Shown here: positions 37,101-48,890 of the stretch, in pieces
Layout: each line of letters begins with the position of its first letter
Numbering within the stretch: the stretch's first letter is position 1
Source of the DNA: Macrostomum lignano
Taxonomy: Eukaryota
Length of the DNA: 64,000 nucleotides
Assembly: GCA_002269645.1 (NCBI GenBank)
Contig: NIVC01000271.1
Coordinates: 372,001 to 436,000 of the forward strand
Reading direction: 5' to 3'
Position numbers and translations under genes: made by a program
Notes under the pieces: generated by a model
Seen by the model: the letters and a program-made list of their open reading frames with translations, nothing else
Told to the model about the DNA's origin: nothing
Database searches by the model: none

Positions 37101-38711
37101 CTAAAAGATTAAGGTACAGGCCAGTAAATTGTTAAAGAAAATACTGTACTATTTCTTAAAACAGAAATAAATTTTTTTAAGACAGGGCGATCATTTAAAA
37201 CAAGAAACAAATACTTACTATTTAATCTCGAGGAGAAAGTTTTTATCATCTTCAATGATTAAGAAAATACGTTGAGATTGACTTTCTATTTTTAAAGATG
37301 AACTATTTGATGTCACTTCGCACTCCTTCACACCGCAAGGAACTACAGATAGCAACACGGATTAGCAATGTAAAATGCATTAAGAATTGTACTCGTAGAC
37401 AAGGTCCAGTTTTTTGTTAAAATTAAATTGAATTTTCCAGTTATTAGTAGCTAAAAACTACAATTCACCAGCAAAAAGTTAATGTTTATGGTAAGCATAC
37501 TAATAATATTTCGACGTTAAAAGGCTAAAATGTGCTACAATTATCCGGAGTTTACTACGTCGTATATTTGAATCAACTGTTTTCCACTAGTTAGCCTTCG
37601 ATCGGGGTTTTTTATAGCTTTGACTTGAAACGTTTTTTCTGTTGTGGTCGCCTGTGGCATTTGACTGACGGCCGTCTCGAACTTGAGCCAACTCTGGTTC
37701 TTAAGTCCATGAAGCACGCGATCTAAAATTCGAAAAAAGGTAATACACGAGCTCAATCATTTGTTGTTTCGAACAAATGGAGCTGAAAATAATCGCTCAG
37801 TACAGGTTCACTCGCCTACCCGATCTCAGCGTAAGCAGGAGCGTCTCAGAAGTCGCAGGGACGCACGCTCGTCAGCTCCATCTTGGTTAAAACCCGACAG
37901 AGTCGCTTGCTGCACCCTGCTATCTTCTCAGCTTTCTGCTTAAATCTCAGCATAATGTCTGCACCAACTGTGACAGAAAAAGTAAAAGTAGAAAAAGTAC
38001 TTCCAGTGTCTCGTCAATTCCATTCTAGCTGTATGTCAACCTCACTGTAAACTGGGTTCCCCGATTAGTCTCGAGATGATGGAGTCTGGGCGATTTGCTA
38101 GCGAGGCCTGGTGCTGAATAATTCTTTCTGAATTTTGTTTAAGAAAAGTCTGCCTAGCTCTCAGTGGACTCAAGGCTATCAGTATTTTGCCTAACTTGTA
38201 GAAATAGCTTGCAATATTTAAAATTCATCCTCTCGATAGGACTTTGGTCCCCGGGTCCCAGGTTTTAGGAAATGAAAGCCCCCTAGGCCTCAGAGGAATG
38301 GAGAGCCATGCTTTCAACCATGGCTGCGCAAAATTAGCGAATGAATTATATCGGTGCTTTACTGCACCGATAATCCAAGGCAATTTAATTTTCTTGAATG
38401 CATTATACAGGAAAAACAGTAAGGGTGAAAGGGGAAGCAAAAGTAATGGTGAATGAGAAATTAAGCCTAAAACCATGAGCCCTCTCCACTCCGTTCCACT
38501 GCTGCTCTGAAGAATCTACCAGGGCCTGTTGCTGTAGAGGCCATTGTGACGCGAGGTACCTCGATCGAGTCGGTAGCTTTTAGTTCTGAAAGCCCTGACC
38601 GGTCGATCCTGGCGATGCTTTAGCCTTCATGATCGTAGCTTCAGGCGGAACCTCATAAATATTGCTTTAGATACCACAGCCCCTATTCATACAGCAAAAA
38701 TATATTACATT

Positions 38712-41700
38712 ACTACTAAGGGCACCCGTATCCGGGGTTTTTGAAGGTGGGGTGGGTGTCAACCCTCCTCGCCTCTCATTGGCTGGCGCTCGGCGCGCGC
38801 GCGCCGCAGGCGCGTGGCGCCAAGCGCCGACCAGCCGCAGGCGCACCCTCCCGATATGTATGTACACCCTCCCGATATGTATGCCGCAAGCGCACCCTCC
38901 CGATATGTACACCCTCCCGATATGTATGCACACCCTCCAGAGCAGCAGGAGCCCATGCCGCAGGCACCCCACTCTCCCAAGCCGCAGGCACCCCGAGTGT
39001 ACACTCTCCCGAGCCAAAGGTACACTCTCCCCAGTACGGGTGTACACTCTCCCAATACAGGTGTACACTCTCCCAATACAGGTGTACACTCGCCCAATAC
39101 AGGTGTACACTCTCCCAATACAGGTGTACACTCTCCCGATATGTAGTCAACGATACGTACCCCGCAGGCCCCCTATACCTCACACCCTGCCCCCCACCTA
39201 GCCTCTTCCCCTCTCTCACCCGCATCTCAACTAGCGAAATCGAACTCAGGTCGCGCCCATACTAGGCCACTACACGGTTGGGTATAGGAAGTTTCAGCCC
39301 CGATGCTGACGCAGCCCTGTACAGTGAGCGTGTACGGGCAGAGAGGGGTGGGTGGACAGAGAGCCAGTCACTAGGTTGTTATACTGTTGAAGCATAGGGA
39401 GCGAGAAGTTTTAACCCCGACGCTGACGCAGCCCTGTACAGTGAGCGTGTACGGGCAGAGGGTGGGTGGAAAGAGATGTGAACAACACAGCCTGCTGCAG
39501 GAGCCGGATAGAGAGGCGCATGCTAGGACAGAGAGGCAGTGTGAGTCACACACACCCCACAGAGAGAGTCGTACAGAGGATAGAGAGCTCCCTCCCCAGT
39601 TGCAGGGGACAGAGAGGCAAGCAGGGTATGCAGGGGCATGCGATCAGTCAAGGGGCCACGCGAGGATAGAGTGGAGGAGCAGAGATGTGTAGGGACAGAG
39701 AGCAGGCCACGCGTGCGTAGTGTGAGGGAACAGAAACATATGGAGCAGGAGGGAGATAGGGAGCAAACGCTCTGGGTAAGGGAGCCACACAAGGGAGCCA
39801 TGCAGCAGGGAGCAGTGTACAGTGAGACACGGGCAGGGGTGGAGCCGTGCGTGGACAGAGCTGAACGGCACGGTCAGCTGCAGGAATAGGATGATAGAGA
39901 GGCGCGGAGAGGAGGGGGGGGGCAGAGAGCAGTGTGCAGGGGTAGGCAGCCACGCAGGCTGGGGAACAGAGAGGCGCGTGTCAGCCAGTTGCAGCCCGGG
40001 ACAGAGAAGTGTGAAGGGGGCCTGGGACAGAGTTGCGAGCAAGGCACAGAGAGGTAGGGTCCAGTAGCTATGTATAGACAGGGACCCACGCGAGGGCAGG
40101 ACTGGGGAGTAGGCATGCAAGTTGCATGCAAGGGCAGAGAGGTGTGCGCGGAGGGAGACAGAGAGCAGTGTGTAGGGGTAGGTAACAGCAAACTTTAGTA
40201 GAGGCGCGTGCGGGGACGGAGAAACCAGTCTGAGCGTACAGAGACGTTACAGAGAGGTACACAAACAGAGACCAAAGCGGGCAGAGCACGTGTAGGGACA
40301 GAGACGTGAGGGAGAATCGACCAAAACACGCTATGTATTATCAAAAGTTGGATTTAGTGCAGCATATTTAATAGTGGGTAGTATAATAGTATGTACATAG
40401 TACCTAGTAGTATTAATAGTAAGTATATTAGCCCAAAAGGTAGGCTAAAACAGGCTAAACTGTGTGTACGCATCCTCATCATCCCACAAGCACCCTCCCC
40501 TGCCAGACTCACTCTTCCAAACCCTCCTGTATTGCTGTATGAAGGAAAATATAGTGTAAAAATACAGATGTTAACCGCTAGACCACTGAAATCAGGGCAC
40601 ACTAGAGGGGTTTCGGGGTCTGCATGCTCTATGTAAGCTGCTTGAGGAGGTTCCAGGGTGTAGGGAGGGTTTCCATTATGTTTTGAAAAAAGAACTAGGA
40701 GGTTAAATTCAACGGTTTATTCAAAAAGTAGGTTATTTTAATGAAATAGCTGATACAATCATTGTCGAGAGTAGAAATTTTTATAAGAAACCAGGTATTT
40801 TAGCAAAAATAAACCTTCAAACCACATAAATTTGAATAAAAAGCAGACATTTTCAAGTAAGCAAACTACATAGAAACTACATAGAAAAGTAAGTAAACTA
40901 GGCACAAAACCAGCAAATTTTACCTTTTTTATTTTAATGTTACTGATAAAGTAGAGAGTAGAAACTTGTGAGCTGTACGGAGTTAGAAAGTATTAGGCAT
41001 TATGTATCGTATGAATTATTAGTTCAGTACCAGCCATTGGTCAAGCGAGCATTTATGAAGTTATTACGAGCGAAGAAGGGATAGAGAGGCATATACAGGA
41101 AGACCATCGTCTCCTTCTAAACCACCGCGATCAGATTGCTAATAGAGATAAGCTTTGTCTGTGTGTAGTATGAGTAAGCGAAGGCGGGGCAAATACTTTT
41201 CAACATGCCAGACAGACAGTATTATGCTAGGATTTCTCTCGAAATCTCGATACGTTAGTTTTTATCACACCATCCAGATGCGCCAACTAGTCAGCAGTAG
41301 TCATTTATATGTTATTAAACCTTACAAACCCAGGTCCGGTAAATATTACAAAGAGTATATTACGTACACACGCCAACCTCGAATACCAAACCATACTAGT
41401 CTACTTGCAGTGCTCCCGGAGGGAAGGGATGGTCTGGAGTTACACACCAAGAATGCATTCATACAAAGAGTACATCACTCGAGCCCAGTCCAGGCGCCCC
41501 GACATGTATGACGCAGGCAACCCTCCCGACATGTATGCAGCAGGCGCACCCTCCCGATATGTACCCCGATATGTACACCCTTCCGATATGTATGCCCACC
41601 CTCCAGAGCAGCAGGCACCCATGCCGCAGACGCCCAAGCCGCAGGCACCCCGAGTGTACACTCTCCCGAGCCAAAGGTACACTCTCCCCAGTACGGGTGT

Positions 41701-44700
41701 ACACTCTCCCAATACAGGTGTACACTCTCCCAATACAGGTGTACACTCTCCCAATACAGGTGTACACTCTCCCAATACAGGTGTACACTCCCCGATATGA
41801 GTGTACACTCTCCCAATATGAGTGTACACTCTCTCGATATGTATGTGTACACCGATATGTAACCAACGATATTAACACAAAATTAGGCTAGTGAAAACTA
41901 CTCATAGTAGGTGAAATTGCGTATATTTACATAAAAAGTAAGCAAAACGCATATTAAACATATCAGTAGGTGTAAATATCGGTGCATAATGCATATTACG
42001 ATGCATATAGGTGTACAGACATATAGAATTAAGTATATGGGCAGCAAAAAACACACAATATAGATGCATTTTATCGATATATTGACAGAAAAGTAGGTGA
42101 AATAGACAAAATCGTAATACAAAGCGGGTACATATCGCTTTATTAGTGGAGTAGGCGCTTGCAGATGCTAGTATAATGTAAAACATAGGTTGAAATACAC
42201 ATACACAGAGTAGATACAAGTATAATACAGGTGCATATGCACACACTGTAGATTCAAATTATGTAGGTGTATAGGCTAAAATACACACATCGTAGAGGCA
42301 GAAGCAAGCATAATGCAGGAAAATTATGATACATATTAGTGCATAAAAGTATCATATTATGACACACTGTAGCACATATTGACATAATGCAGGGGAAAAT
42401 ATTGACAGAAATAATGCACAATTGTAGAGGTAACAACCCGCCAACTAGTAAGGGCATCCAACACTTGTTCAGGTTTTTATTATTTCGAGACGAGTGTCAC
42501 GCCCTCGCAAGAGATCTTATCAGACATTTGTTGAACCCCACTGCAACTCCCCAGAGCCTCCAAATGCGAGTTTTTAACCCAGGGTCGAGTACAAAGGGCC
42601 CGCCCACTCTTAACCCCAAGGGGAGATCCCTAGCGGAGACCAAGTACAGTGCGGATGGAGAGGGGTAACAGAAAGCGCTGCATCAGACCGCGGAGCTGCA
42701 TTCCTCCCTGAGGTAGGCGCGTCAGCTCCCACTCCTCATTTAACCATCAAGTAAACTAAATAAGTCAAGCAGAAAGCCCCTACATTCACCCACAACCAGC
42801 ACAAGTAAGAGTACTTTCCACTAGAGAGCCATAGTGCAAGATTCGCGAGCCAAGTTGAAGCACACCCAATTACACTAAAGACATATGTATTAAAAAGCAG
42901 GCCTGCACCTCTACAAAAACACAGTATGTACCAACAAAATTTGCTTTTGGTGCAGCGTATTTAATAAAAAGCAGGTGTCTTAGCACAAAAGTAGGCATCA
43001 ATGCGGGGCACGGGCTAAACTGTATAAACTGTATTTACAAACGCAGGTCAACAAACTACACACAATGTAGCGCATAGACATAATTGTACGCATAAATGTA
43101 CACAATTTCCTGTATATAGGACCTCATGTACGCAAATTTACGCAAATGTACACACACACACACACACACATGCACGCACACGCGTATCCTGCAGCGCATC
43201 CTGCAGCGCCGATCGCCGCAGGCGATGGCGCCATCGGCAGGGAGCTCTTGCTGTGAATACGCGTGTGCGTGCATGTGTGTGTGTGTGTGTGTGTGTACAT
43301 TTGCGTAAATTTGCGTACATATCGGGGTACATATCGGGAGGGTGCGCCTGCTGCATACATGTCGGGAGGGTTGCCTGCGTCATACATGTCGGGGCGCCTG
43401 GACTGGGCTCGAGTGATGTACTCTTTGTATGAATGCATTCTTGGTGTGTAACTCCAGACCATCCCTTCCCTCCGGGAGCACTGCAAGTAGACTAGTATGG
43501 TTTGGTATTCGAGGTTGGCGTGTGTACGTAATATACTCTTTGTAATATTTACCGGACCTGGGTTTGTAAGGTTTAATAACATATAAATGACTACTGCTGA
43601 CTAGTTGGCGCATCTGGATGGTGTGATAAAAACTAACGTATCGAGATTTCGAGAGAAATCCTAGCATAATACTGTCTGTCTGGCATGTTGAAAAGTATTT
43701 GCCCCGCCTTCGCTTACTCATACTACACACAGACAAAGCTTATCTCTATTAGCAATCTGATCGCGGTGGTTTAGAAGGAGACGATGGTCTTCCTGTATAT
43801 GCCTCTCTATCCCTTCTTCGCTCGTAATAACTTCATAAATGCTCGCTTGACCAATGGCTGGTACTGAACTAATAATTCATACGATACATAATGCCTAATA
43901 CTTTCTAACTCCGTACAGCTCACAAGTTTCTACTCTCTACTTTATCAGTAACATTAAAATAAAAAAGGTAAAATTTGCTGGTTTTGTGCCTAGTTTACTT
44001 ACTTTTCTATGTAGTTTCTATGTAGTTTGCTTACTTGAAAATGTCTGCTTTTTATTCAAATTTATGTGGTTTGAAGGTTTATTTTTGCTAAAATACCTGG
44101 TTTCTTATAAAAATTTCTACTCTCGACAATGATTGTATCAGCTATTTCATTAAAATAACCTACTTTTTGAATAAACCGTTGAATTTAACCTCCTAGTTCT
44201 TTTTTCAAAACATAATGGAAACCCTCCCTACACCCTGGAACCTCCTCAAGCAGCTTACATAGAGCATGCAGACCCCGAAACCCCTCTAGTGTGCCCTGAT
44301 TTCAGTGGTCTAGCGGTTAACATCTGTATTTTTACACTATATTTTCCTTCATACAGCAATACAGGAGGGTTTGGAAGAGTGAGTCTGGCAGGGGAGGGTG
44401 CTTGTGGGATGATGAGGATGCGTACACACAGTTTAGCCTGTTTTAGCCTACCTTTTGGGCTAATATACTTACTATTAATACTACTAGGTACTATGTACAT
44501 ACTATTATACTACCCACTATTAAATATGCTGCACTAAATCCAACTTTTGATAATACATAGCGTGTTTTGGTCGATTCTCCCTCACGTCTCTGTCCCTACA
44601 CGTGCTCTGCCCGCTTTGGTCTCTGTTTGTGTACCTCTCTGTAACGTCTCTGTACGCTCAGACTGGTTTCTCCGTCCCCGCACGCGCCTCTACTAAAGTT

Positions 44701-46178
44701 TGCTGTTACCTACCCCTACACACTGCTCTCTGTCTCCCTCCGCGCACACCTCTCTGCCCTTGCATGCAACTTGCATGCCTACTCCCCAGTCCTGCCCTCG
44801 CGTGGGTCCCTGTCTATACATAGCTACTGGACCCTACCTCTCTGTGCCTTGCTCGCAACTCTGTCCCAGGCCCCCTTCACACTTCTCTGTCCCGGGCTGC
44901 AACTGGCTGACACGCGCCTCTCTGTTCCCCAGCCTGCGTGGCTGCCTACCCCTGCACACTGCTCTCTGCCCCCCCCCCTCCTCTCCGCGCCTCTCTATCA
45001 TCCTATTCCTGCAGCTGACCGTGCCGTTCAGCTCTGTCCACGCACGGCTCCACCCCTGCCCGTGTCTCACTGTACACTGCTCCCTGCTGCATGGCTCCCT
45101 TGTGTGGCTCCCTTACCCAGAGCGTTTGCTCCCTATCTCCCTCCTGCTCCATATGTTTCTGTTCCCTCACACTACGCACGCGTGGCCTGCTCTCTGTCCC
45201 TACACATCTCTGCTCCTCCACTCTATCCTCGCGTGGCCCCTTGACTGATCGCATGCCCCTGCATACCCTGCTTGCCTCTCTGTCCCCTGCAACTGGGGAG
45301 GGAGCTCTCTATCCTCTGTACGACTCTCTCTGTGGGGTGTGTGTGACTCACACTGCCTCTCTGTCCTAGCATGCGCCTCTCTATCCGGCTCCTGCAGCAG
45401 GCTGTGTTGTTCACATCTCTTTCCACCCACCCTCTGCCCGTACACGCTCACTGTACAGGGCTGCGTCAGCGTCGGGGTTAAAACTTCTCGCTCCCTATGC
45501 TTCAACAGTATAACAACCTAGTGACTGGCTCTCTGTCCACCCACCCCTCTCTGCCCGTACACGCTCACTGTACAGGGCTGCGTCAGCATCGGGGCTGAAA
45601 CTTCCTATACCCAACCGTGTAGTGGCCTAGTATGGGCGCGACCTGAGTTCGATTTCGCTAGTTGAGATGCGGGTGAGAGAGGGGAAGAGGCTAGGTGGGG
45701 GCAGGGTGTGAGGTATAGGGGCCTGCGGGGTACGTATCGTTGACTACATATCGGGAGAGTGTACACCTGTATTGGGAGAGTGTACACCTGTATTGGGCGA
45801 GTGTACACCTGTATTGGGAGAGTGTACACCTGTATTGGGAGAGTGTACACCCGTACTGGGGAGAGTGTACCTTTGGCTCGGGAGAGTGTACACTCGGGGT
45901 GCCTGCGGCTTGGGAGAGTGGGGTGCCTGCGGCATGGGCTCCTGCTGCTCTGGAGGGTGTGCATACATATCGGGAGGGTGTACATATCGGGAGGGTGCGC
46001 TTGCGGCATACATATCGGGAGGGTGTACATACATATCGGGAGGGTGCGCCTGCGGCTGGTCGGCGCTTGGCGCCACGCGCCTGCGGCGCGCGCGCGCCGA
46101 GCGCCAGCCAATGAGAGGCGAGGAGGGTTGACACCCACCCCACCTCCAAAAACCCCGGATACGGGTGCCCTTAGTAGT
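38712..46178. mobile_element. 7.47-kb foldback element with 2.86-kb near-identical TIRs and a 6-bp TSD; non-autonomous
   Basis: Left arm 38712-41576 is the reverse complement of 43315-46178 (the ORF track shows mirrored identical ORFs); termini ACTACTAAGGGCACCCG / CGGGTGCCCTTAGTAGT; TACATT at 38706-38711 and 46179-46184; no recognisable protein. Confidence 0.88.
43126..43320. repeat. Small hairpin with (CA)n/(TG)n arms abutting the right arm of the foldback element
   Basis: ATGTACGCAAATTTACGCAAATGTACACACAC...CACGCGTAT (43126-43187) versus ATACGCGTG...GTGTACATTTGCGTAAATTTGCGTACAT (about 43257-43320). Confidence 0.85.
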
Positions 46179-47074
46179 TACATTGAGTTCTTTCTGACAA
46201 AAAGCTTCATACAATCGCTGTTCAAATACCTACTACGCTCGTAACTGCTTGTATATAAAATCTATGCATTTTATAGTGCATTCAAAGTAGCTTTAAATAT
46301 TTGAGTTTCAATTTTTTCCGAGAAGTATAATTTCTACTTTACTCTAGCTAGGCCTGCTCCGTGGGCCTCATTGTAAAGTGTGTTAACCTCACCCCTCCCC
46401 CTTTGCCCACCTCTCCTCTGCCCGTCCCTCCGCCGCGTGCAGGGGGTTCTTAAGCCCAGAATTTTCTGGCCTAGTTGTCGGCGTGCAACTGATCTGATTT
46501 TTTTCTTGTTTTTTCCCCCCAGTTTTATCGATCCAATTCGCATTCGACGTACGCCCGTATATTGCGTAAAATAAATGCAACATACGAAGGGGTCGCCTTC
46601 CCACCTCTTCGCTGCTTTGTGCTCGCTACCAACCCGCCGCCTTTGCCTTCCTTTTGCTGCTTGTGGGGTTGTAGATTAATATCTTGCTATTTCAGAAATA
46701 TACAAAATCTGTGGCCTTTCTTTTGCCCGGAACTCTAAAGTTCTTAGGCTCCACTAAATGACTGAATTATTTTTACAGACAACTTAGGAGTAAGTTCGCT
46801 TTATATTTTTATTTCTGTTTTGTTTGCTTCGTTAAAATTGTAGTTATAAAATATTAGCAAATGTGTATGTAGCTTTGGTGAACTTCTGCTGTTATGTTAC
46901 TCAATGTGAGAACGCAAAGAAACGATATGCGAACTTCTCCTCTTATTTTTGGGGTTATAGCAAAATCAAACTTAGCAGGGTTAAATTAGTGCCAATATTA
47001 AGGTTATAGTTATTTTATAGAATATCCAGTACAAAAAACTTCCGTAAATTTTCGATTACATCTTAGAATCATTT

Positions 47075-48890
47075 TATAATTAACCTTTTTGCTCTCTAGT
47101 TGGTGCGAATTCGCCAGCAGGCCAGCGTATCAGAAACTTAGGTTTTGGCCAAAGAAGGTTTGGCCATAGATTTGCAGAAAGCAGAAAGCAATTAGGAAAT
47201 AGCTGTATTTAATTTGGTCTGCCCACAGATACTTGAATAAGTTATTCTACGGGGAAAAACCGGTACAGAGGCTGACTGTGATATTCGAATTTGATGCAAC
47301 TTGCGTCATAAGTAGAAAAAAATCCAACGGTTGTTTTGCTTTTTAAATTGGGTAAAAATGTCAATTCATTAAAAAGTTATGCCTATAAATAGAACAAGGG
47401 GTAGGGGGTAAAGTTACACCAAGTCGAGCCTACTATGCTGGCCAAAGACTAAACTTTTGATGTTTAGTCAGAACCATCGATTCGAAAACAAAAGCAAACG
47501 AAGAAGCTGAAGAGAAACAAAAGAGCACATAAGCCCTCGAAAAAAGTAGAAGCTAATCTGAAGCAGCAGCAGAAGCAGAACAGCTGCAGGCTGCAGGCTG
47601 AGGGGTGACTTCGTCGAAAAGTCATCAGTCAAGGGCGATGGCGATGCTGCGTGACCGACTTTGCAGACCCCTCGACTTGGTGGGAAGCAGAATAACACGC
47701 CGTGAGCGTATTTTCGAACGCCTGTGCATGCGCGAGACTGCTTGGTGTAGTTATTAGAAGGCAACTGCGCCTCTAGCTTAACACCCTCAAACCCGCTGGC
47801 TGCTCTGCAGCCATCTGCCATCCGCGGAATGGAGGAATCTAGCACGCTGACGAGTGCGTCAATGGCTGAAACACGAGTGCGCGTAGCGCACGAGGGTTTT
47901 TGCCAAAGACGCACAAGTCAAAGTGCTTGATTTCCATTCTTATTTGATCCAACATGTGTGCCTAAAGTAGACAAGGGTGGAGCTGGGTGTGTGGAGTTAG
48001 ACTTGAACCATAGAGAAAATATGCGCGAGCTAGTCTGAACATTCTTGCACGATGGAAAGAAGATTATGCTTGTAGTCTATGGCTGTTATGCTAAATATAG
48101 AAACATTGCGCATTACATTCTTGCACGATTGACGTTCCTGCACGGAGTGCACATGCAAATTCAAGGTGCTTTTACCATAGACACTAGCATTTCTGCACGC
48201 ATATGGCGACTTCCAAAGCATTCTTGCACGCTGGATCAAATAAGAATGCCCGCCGCCACAGCTGTCTGTGGCCAGGACCAGCGGCGCCCTGCAACTCACT
48301 CAGAAAACCCACTATGGCTGCAGAGCAGCCATCAAAGAAATAGCACTCATTTTTACACAGCTCATTTAGTGAATCTATGGCTACTCTGCAGCCAGTGGGT
48401 TTTCAAAGAGTGAATGCTGTGGCTGCTTTGGGCAGACCCAGATGTCTATGGCTGCTCTGCATCTAACGGGTTTTCTCAGAGTGATTGCACAGGCTTGAGG
48501 GAGCAGAAATGGTTTAAAAGCAAAACAACCGTTGGATTTTTTCTACTCATGACGCAAGTTGCATCAAATTCGAATATCACAGTCAGCCTCTGTACGGGTT
48601 TTTCCCGCTATTTCTGGGACAACCCTCGTAGTATCAGTGGGTCTGCCTAAGAACAGCTTGTACAAGAAAAATTGAGACATGGCACAATATGGCACATATT
48701 GAGAGACCTTACTCCAAAATCAGCTTGATGGACCGTGAGAGAATCCTTTAGTTAGCCCAAATAGAACACAGTCTAAACCAAATTGGTGGCTGGTTTTCTG
48801 CACATGTCTATATGGCAAACCATGTTTTTCGGCTTGGCTCGTTTCCGCTGCGTGTGTCGCACCAAAAATAGAACGCAAAAAGGTATAGTT
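47075..48890. mobile_element. ~1.8-kb element with long inverted repeats; boundaries approximate
   Basis: 47251-47347 is a near-perfect reverse complement of 48513-48606; degenerate inverted similarity continues outward (47075-47200 versus 48780-48890); internal GTCTATGG copies at 48075 and 48444. Confidence 0.55.

Follow-up and report, generated by a model that had tools for sequence, protein, structure and literature searches.

A gene-less palindromic element of Macrostomum lignano and its probable dependence on two Polinton-type partners

Introduction

Polintons or Mavericks (adintoviruses) are characterised by a 6-bp target-site duplication, long terminal inverted repeats (TIRs) and a short terminal trinucleotide repeat, and their core proteins are a protein-primed DNA polymerase (pPolB), an rve integrase, an ATPase, a protease and a capsid protein (10.1101/2023.08.22.554363; PMC8097293). 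The end motifs given in PMC8097293 are (AGT)2, (AG)3 and (AC)3A, and no introns were seen in the intact vertebrate Polintons described there. Polinton-like elements with introns are known in dinoflagellates (PMC11957031), and Polintons that lack capsid, protease and ATPase have been described as well (PMC4028283). Protein-primed replication itself is known from adenoviruses and linear plasmids (PMC11161782; PMC9863843). It has long been asked whether animal Polintons have an extrachromosomal stage of replication and produce particles. Here, we describe a gene-less palindromic element at positions 38712 to 46178 of a 64,000-nucleotide stretch of the Macrostomum lignano genome (contig NIVC01000271.1, positions 372,001 to 436,000; hereafter the window). 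It belongs to a class of gene-less palindromes, called P, that share their ends with polymerase-bearing elements (A) and with one of two subfamilies of integrase- and capsid-bearing elements (B1 and B2). P is probably a fold-back satellite that relies on the A polymerase for copying and on the B2 integrase for insertion, and the window copy is a young, partly deleted member of this 9-kb palindromic family.

Several other known systems are close to such an element. Foldback elements of the MuDR and P/Galileo superfamilies have 7-9-bp duplications and a DDE transposase as partner. The hairpin or palindromic derivatives of protein-primed linear plasmids, namely of kalilo in Neurospora and of pGKL1, are gene-poor fold-back replicons kept by the protein-primed polymerase of a helper; they arise directly by deletion from a single plasmid and are extrachromosomal and non-integrated. 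The original 2006 Polinton paper, by Kapitonov and Jurka, reportedly described non-autonomous Polintons. Bidnaviruses are single-stranded DNA viruses with a parvovirus-type capsid and no known integrase. Their genome consists of two segments with matching termini (PMC8502044), and their polymerase is described as Polinton-derived (PMC11161782). Snap-back genomes of adeno-associated virus (AAV) and other viruses are self-complementary and depend on a helper whose type of ends they carry (PMC8235507). No palindromic Polinton satellite, split Polinton or study of Macrostomum Polintons was found in the literature consulted, and Repbase or the supplements of surveys could list such families.

The palindromic element and its family

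A sequence-only reading of the window had described a palindromic insertion with near-identical arms, (ACT)-repeat termini and a 6-bp duplication, and this description is borne out. The element starts with ACTACT and ends with AGTAGT, TACATT stands on both sides, and the two arms (38712-41576 and 43315-46178) are 99.86% identical over 2,866 alignment columns. The arms differ by three single-base homopolymer indels, as that reading had largely noted, but its "few end substitutions" are reduced to one, at 38744. The features in the window are as follows.

38706-38711 (no strand): left target-site duplication, TACATT
38712-38742 (+): left terminus, with ACTACT repeat, hypervariable nucleotides 11-27 and T-run, an architecture common to A, B2 and P
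38712-39173 (+): first A-type terminal-repeat block with 17-21-bp subrepeats, a homologue of the TIR found on polymerase-bearing elements
38712-41576 (+): left arm, paired part
39298-39551 (+): B2-TIR motifs, including a 32-nucleotide motif present twice (39298-39329 and 39415-39446; 94-97%)
39526-39551 (+): B2-TIR motif of 26 nucleotides (96%)
39336-40305 (+): purine-rich kilobase, an array of GGACAGAGAG-like words, all in the same orientation
41499-42335 (+): second A-type TIR block; in other subfamilies a B2-type TIR block lies near here on both arms
41577-43125 (+): left-arm remainder, unpaired, its mirror deleted from the right arm
43126-43320 (no strand): true centre, a hairpin flanked by CA/TG, its conserved loop being about 77 nucleotides long (43184-43260)
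43315-43320 (no strand): 6-bp microhomology at the right-arm deletion junction
43315-46178 (-): right arm, mirror of 38712-41576
46179-46184 (no strand): right target-site duplication, TACATT

The 1.74 kb between the paired arms had been taken for a unique spacer, which it is not. Nucleotide searches for P relatives were run across the organism's own genome (764 Mb), and with positions 41850-43120 as query there were 45 matches (40 of 241 candidates were scored), many of them forming inverted pairs. In complete copies the arms reach the CA/TG-flanked central hairpin, and the "spacer" corresponds to unpaired left arm plus this hairpin centre (195 bp in the window). The right arm of the window copy is short by about 1,556 bp; this 1.55-kb loss probably arose by microhomology-mediated deletion, a kind of event to which long palindromes are prone.

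P is present in dozens of gene-less palindromic copies. The loop 35-mer has 47 matches in the genome, a count that includes duplicate haplotypes, and only one of its sites varies among them; reversed control patterns gave 0 matches in both the loop and the terminus searches. The 6-bp duplication is exact in 18 of 19 two-ended P copies, and is present in the 19th too once an additional ACT is included, a recurrence that speaks against chance. Eight of the 19 are complete, at 8.66-9.39 kb with arms of about 4.4 kb; deletions, insertions or a tandem duplication are found in the remainder. Within one copy, the two arms show 0-2 differences over a 1.1-kb segment, against up to 70 between copies, and the large modules that distinguish subfamilies are present on both arms. 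Thus, the arms have been copied one onto the other within each lineage. The window insertion is also young, with one substitution in 2.87 kb, so that youth and arm-to-arm conversion, which had been offered as alternatives, both hold.

The lack of coding capacity noted earlier is confirmed in the left half of the window element, where no conserved open reading frame (ORF) was found and each stop-to-stop frame is intact in 0-9 of at most 18 other copies. When a 2.25-kb arm stretch was compared with two other copies, 16 of 20 and 16 of 19 indels were not multiples of 3. Substitutions in this stretch show no consistent codon-position bias, against 64:13:9 in a control exon of the A polymerase. Rfam gave no match at gathering level, only sub-threshold, microsatellite-driven miRNA matches. 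The subrepeats (17-27 bp) and the purine-skewed kilobase (68% purine across 39300-40300) pointed out before are present, and arm nucleotides 600-1600 hold 14 GGACAGAGAG-like words on the same strand (shuffles: mean 0.9, maximum 4). Sequencing runs were taken as RNA by guess, none of those containing the sequence being recorded as RNA; one such run covered 18 of 30 left-half bins with no GT..AG joint and is given no weight here. No empty site was found among the loose ends listed.

One copy, C2693, has 7.7 kb between its arms and was considered as an autonomous P. It was rejected, as the interior belongs to a different element, which has a 660-bp tandem array and lacks any relevant ORF: a 7.6-kb element (L066-L067) with short TIRs and about nine 660-bp units, inserted in the CA tract beside the loop. 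At another locus (G000:C261:123483-139759; L073-L074) a tandem pair of P units lies within one 6-bp duplication, the second unit lacking its first ~900 bp.

Polymerase-bearing and integrase-bearing partners

Partners with the same termini, for which the sequence-only reading had proposed a search, do exist: pPolB was found on A only and the integrase on B only, B2 being the B subfamily with matching ends. Its suggestion of a non-autonomous Polinton-like element is therefore supported, and there is no need to invoke a new foldback family with an unrelated transposase. Polymerase matches above the cut-off (PF03175) sit between the same ACTACT termini. A elements are mostly 8.8-9.8 kb long (8.76-9.77 kb in 16/18) with TIRs of about 0.9-1.4 kb, and all 18 two-ended ones have 6-bp duplications. 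They carry a spliced pPolB gene, a PC4-like gene (about 30% identity with its counterpart in the canonical Polintons of this genome), and sometimes an orphan ORF; neither an integrase nor a capsid gene was detected on them. Polinton pPolB has a terminal-protein (TP)-vOTU-exonuclease-palm architecture; the analysis of the A polymerase covered its exonuclease and palm motifs, which lie in natural exon frames, and its FHGCFYHG stretch may be Vsr-like. Its nearest database proteins are M. lignano gene models (up to 99%), beyond which the best reach 26-29%. Each of five GT..AG joints was found in contigs of 1-4 of 4 guessed-RNA runs, from four studies, and the A polymerase gene is apparently both transcribed and spliced.

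A divergent A-like subfamily (C1263) has ACTACGTA ends and a dUTPase on the same plan. Among the 7 of 15 ACTAC-ended elements listed, the ORFs of canonical Polintons (n=62) gave only PC4-like and dUTPase-like matches. The single DDE transposase noted between such ends is a mariner-type ORF in one 3.2-kb copy, which is read as a secondary insertion. One A element (C1090, L152-L153) has a TIR extended to 4.7 kb.

B-type elements were located by inspecting single termini. B1 elements have ACTAC(G/A)TA ends and are mostly 10.1-10.5 kb long, with duplications in 8 of 9. B2 elements have ACTACTA ends and are 10.3-10.6 kb long in 8 of 11, and 9 of the 11 B2-ended elements, the hybrid described below included, show duplications; the genome holds 36 B2-type ends (control 0). 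TIRs of A and B together span about 0.4-1.4 kb. The B1 integrase scores above the Pfam rve cut-off, and the B2 integrases are 81-82% identical to it. ATPase-like and protease-like ORFs of B match their canonical Polinton counterparts in tblastn. A 427-amino-acid protein of B2 is predicted to be a double-jelly-roll capsid protein: its model has a predicted local distance difference test (pLDDT) score of 81, and Foldseek matches it to the major capsid proteins of PBCV-1, mavirus and Sputnik (E 1e-18 to 1e-16). The polymerase had no match in 21 B loci (12 B and 9 further B2-ended), 31 B ORFs had none in 38 A and P elements except for frames overlapping the TIR, and neither pPolB nor the rve integrase matched in P elements. 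A and B2, elements with matching ends, carry complementary gene sets.

B1 was also tried as the integrase donor. It shares only the GGAGGTGAGG box, its ends have at least 11 mismatches to the P terminal 27-mers, and none of its blocks occur in P arms; B2 is preferred for these reasons. One hybrid (G000:C56:643541-661960; L298-L299) has B2-type ends, 1.2-kb TIRs, a P-type interior with the loop, and a 6-bp duplication. The same element carries a long 623-bp tandem array. In two other places, a B element and a P end are separated by 0.8 and 1.3 kb (G000:C261:122657-123483 and G000:C382:266850-268191), with ~0.03 such cases expected by chance; co-insertion or shared target regions could account for this. 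Our 54-element table omits one-ended copies, L225 (short, with a retrotransposon insertion), L228 (a 463-bp pair with no duplication), C190, C168 and C135.

Shared ends and mosaic arms

All 37 P and A elements end in (ACT)2//(AGT)2. Further in, terminal nucleotides 11-27 differ by about 50% between copies, and nucleotides 40-70 by only 0-9%. Identical terminal 27-mers nevertheless occur across classes (P-A 3, P-B2 1, A-B2 3), one of them in all three, and the nearest relative of the window terminus is an A terminus with 2 differences in 27 nucleotides. The four-gamete test is failed by 105 of 171 site pairs at the termini, which points to recombination or recurrent change there. The hypervariable stretch lies between the invariant terminal repeat and a conserved box in P, A, B1 and B2, with variants common to unrelated interiors; a similar variable terminal stretch is seen in canonical Polintons of the C114 type.

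Behind the ends, the P arm is a mosaic. It opens with about 450 bp of A-type TIR, followed by B2-TIR motifs, and a GGACAGAGAG-like word occurs four times at matching positions inside each B2 TIR. The inner arm block is either a second A-type block, as in the window, or a B2-type one, according to subfamily. B2-TIR blocks of at least 60 bp are found in 14 of the 19 P copies, on both arms in 12. Altogether, matches to A or B2 account for only about 1,100-1,650 of the 4,500 bases in an arm. The two ends of an element are alike within 1 nucleotide in 19/19 P copies versus 27/37 A and B elements (one-sided Fisher p 0.01, in a non-random sample), as a full-length hairpin stage would predict.

Comparison with known systems

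P, A and B resemble Polintons in the 6-bp duplication, long TIRs and terminal trinucleotide repeat, and A and B jointly encode the core proteins. Unlike Polintons, P is gene-less and nearly all palindrome, and the core genes are split over two elements; none of the P, A and B elements examined holds both pPolB and the rve integrase, as an autonomous Polinton does. Its arms (2.9 kb here, ~4.4 kb when complete) exceed the 100-1500 bp TIR range of autonomous Polintons, into which the TIRs of A and B fit. P can be placed as a non-autonomous Polinton derivative by the termini it has in common with coding Polinton-type partners in the genome. The 6-bp duplication separates it from the MuDR and P/Galileo foldbacks. 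In contrast to the kalilo and pGKL1 derivatives, P is a stable multi-copy family whose arms combine terminal mosaics of two helpers with unrelated filler. The likeness to bidnaviruses lies in two segments, matching ends and pPolB; here, however, both halves integrate and the capsid is predicted to be a double jelly roll. The (ACT)2//(AGT)2 ends of P are outside the motif list of PMC8097293, and the A polymerase gene is spliced, unlike the genes of the intact vertebrate Polintons in that source. Snap-back AAV genomes (PMC8235507) are short, contain parts of helper genes and arise anew, whereas P has full segment length, is non-coding and is inherited in the germ line; nor are its arms a contiguous terminal piece of a helper.

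A proposed satellite model and its alternatives

From the shared ends and the duplications, P is likely mobilised in trans by the enzymes of its partners. In the model that we regard as probable, the terminal-protein polymerase of A would prime both ends of a free linear P, by analogy with adenoviruses and linear plasmids. The displaced single strand would fold, much as in panhandle replication, into a 4.4-kb hairpin, closed by the conserved loop and offering a normal origin where it is open. The arms would then be equalised, both descending from one, through fold-back synthesis or repair within the stem, and the B2 integrase would insert the product with a 6-bp stagger. The weakest step concerns packaging: the ~9-kb size, including ~3 kb per arm of untraced filler, may reflect a size requirement of the capsid. 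Complete P (8.66-9.39 kb), A (8.76-9.77 kb) and B2 (10.3-10.6 kb) are of similar size, versus 16.8-17.1 kb for two full canonical Polintons, and the similarity suggests a packaging constraint. Judged from size, packaging of P has a little less than an even chance. More tentatively, the three classes may form one Polinton virus system, in which one segment, with the spliced polymerase, serves replication, another serves morphogenesis and integration, and the third is a hairpin satellite without genes that has the size of a capsid load. The satellite would hold the cis-signals of both helpers, and all three classes would share a single pool of hypervariable terminal tags that recombine; this part is put forward just as tentatively.

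Several points weigh against this interpretation. About 3,000 of 4,500 arm bases match neither A nor B2, so that a simple snap-back of a single helper end does not describe P. Short derivatives of 3.4, 3.2 and 1.1 kb are likewise flanked by duplications; 9 kb is therefore not needed for residence in the genome, and the packaging step is weakened. Asymmetric deletions or insertions are seen in several P copies, and a 1-nucleotide difference between the ends is retained in two P and three near-identical A copies, which means that homogenisation was incomplete in some rounds. Assembly polishing may also inflate arm identity. Frames are broken in many A and B copies, and the elements, chosen from search matches with both ends, are a non-random sample. 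An ACTACT-ended element with both modules may exist among the A/P-type termini beyond the 100 listed of 185. Finally, the free DNA, the hairpin, the terminal protein and the particles of the model are hypothetical.

Among the alternatives, the one that survives best, unlikely as we judge it, is that P is an ordinary non-autonomous element, cut and pasted by a B-type integrase alone, with its arms evened out by chromosomal gene conversion and no role for polymerase or capsid. The 6-bp duplications indeed require only an integrase, the first 31 nucleotides are common to P and B2, and short P derivatives exist. However, past nucleotide 31 the P ends track the A TIR for about 450 bp, and the three classes, whose interiors are unrelated, have exchanged terminal variants. 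Shrinkage is usual in non-autonomous families moved by cut and paste, whereas P, when complete, has kept a length of 8.7-9.4 kb.

It is quite improbable that P is a functional non-coding third segment or a regulator, such as one yielding double-stranded RNA or titrating a terminal-binding protein that tunes A and B. The near-invariant loop 35-mer and the arrays of helper motifs within the arms would fit such a role, and snap-back AAV genomes reportedly regulate their helper (PMC8235507). The absence of a conserved ORF, the frame-breaking indels and the Rfam result argue against it, and the conservation and motif arrays are equally expected from a selfish replicon.

Still less probable is a canonical AGTAGT-ended Polinton of the same genome as the helper. 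Such Polintons are numerous (115 integrase matches, 114 of 2,318 candidates having been scored) and complete, two full ones measuring 16.8-17.1 kb, and 6-bp duplications are found in 4 of 5. Their nucleotide sequence has no similarity to the P arm, however, their nearest end is 11 mismatches of 27 nucleotides away from P, A and B2 ends, and B2 supplies an integrase with identical ends. C114-related integrases were also followed up as a partner and rejected, since the host element was an AGTAGT-ended Polinton in all 8 loci inspected.

As improbable is a fold-back or assembly artefact. Long inverted repeats are prone to such artefacts, and short-read contigs from three runs span the flank and only the first 30 nucleotides of the element (1 nucleotide short of the bridging rule). 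Against an artefact, these contigs show 0 differences, the symmetry ends precisely with the element, the flanks being unlike except for the 6-bp duplication, the same holds at 19 independent sites, and a second contig has the same flank and left arm (99.8% over 13.3 kb) before it ends.

The preferred satellite model bears on the question of how animal Polintons live. A gene-less, segment-sized element that homogenises its arms and holds the terminal modules of both helpers is what an extrachromosomal, particle-forming life cycle would predict. The sequences that P has retained would mark the cis-signals, namely the origin, the integrase end and candidate packaging words. If the more tentative three-class system is real, the host genome would record a segmented DNA virus of the double-jelly-roll kind together with a defective-interfering parasite of its own.

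Other observations

Canonical Polintons of the C114/C393 type encode a TBP-like protein (L197:8023-8583; PF00352, E 3e-21). Two others (L202-L205; C2301 and C3189) contain 6-kb internal inverted duplications, both at contig ends and possibly artefacts; together with the grown TIR of C1090, they show fold-back rearrangements recurring in these elements. In the window itself, a 1.36-kb element resembling a miniature inverted-repeat transposable element lies at 47249-48607, with TIRs of about 95 bp (96%) and apparently flanked by TA.

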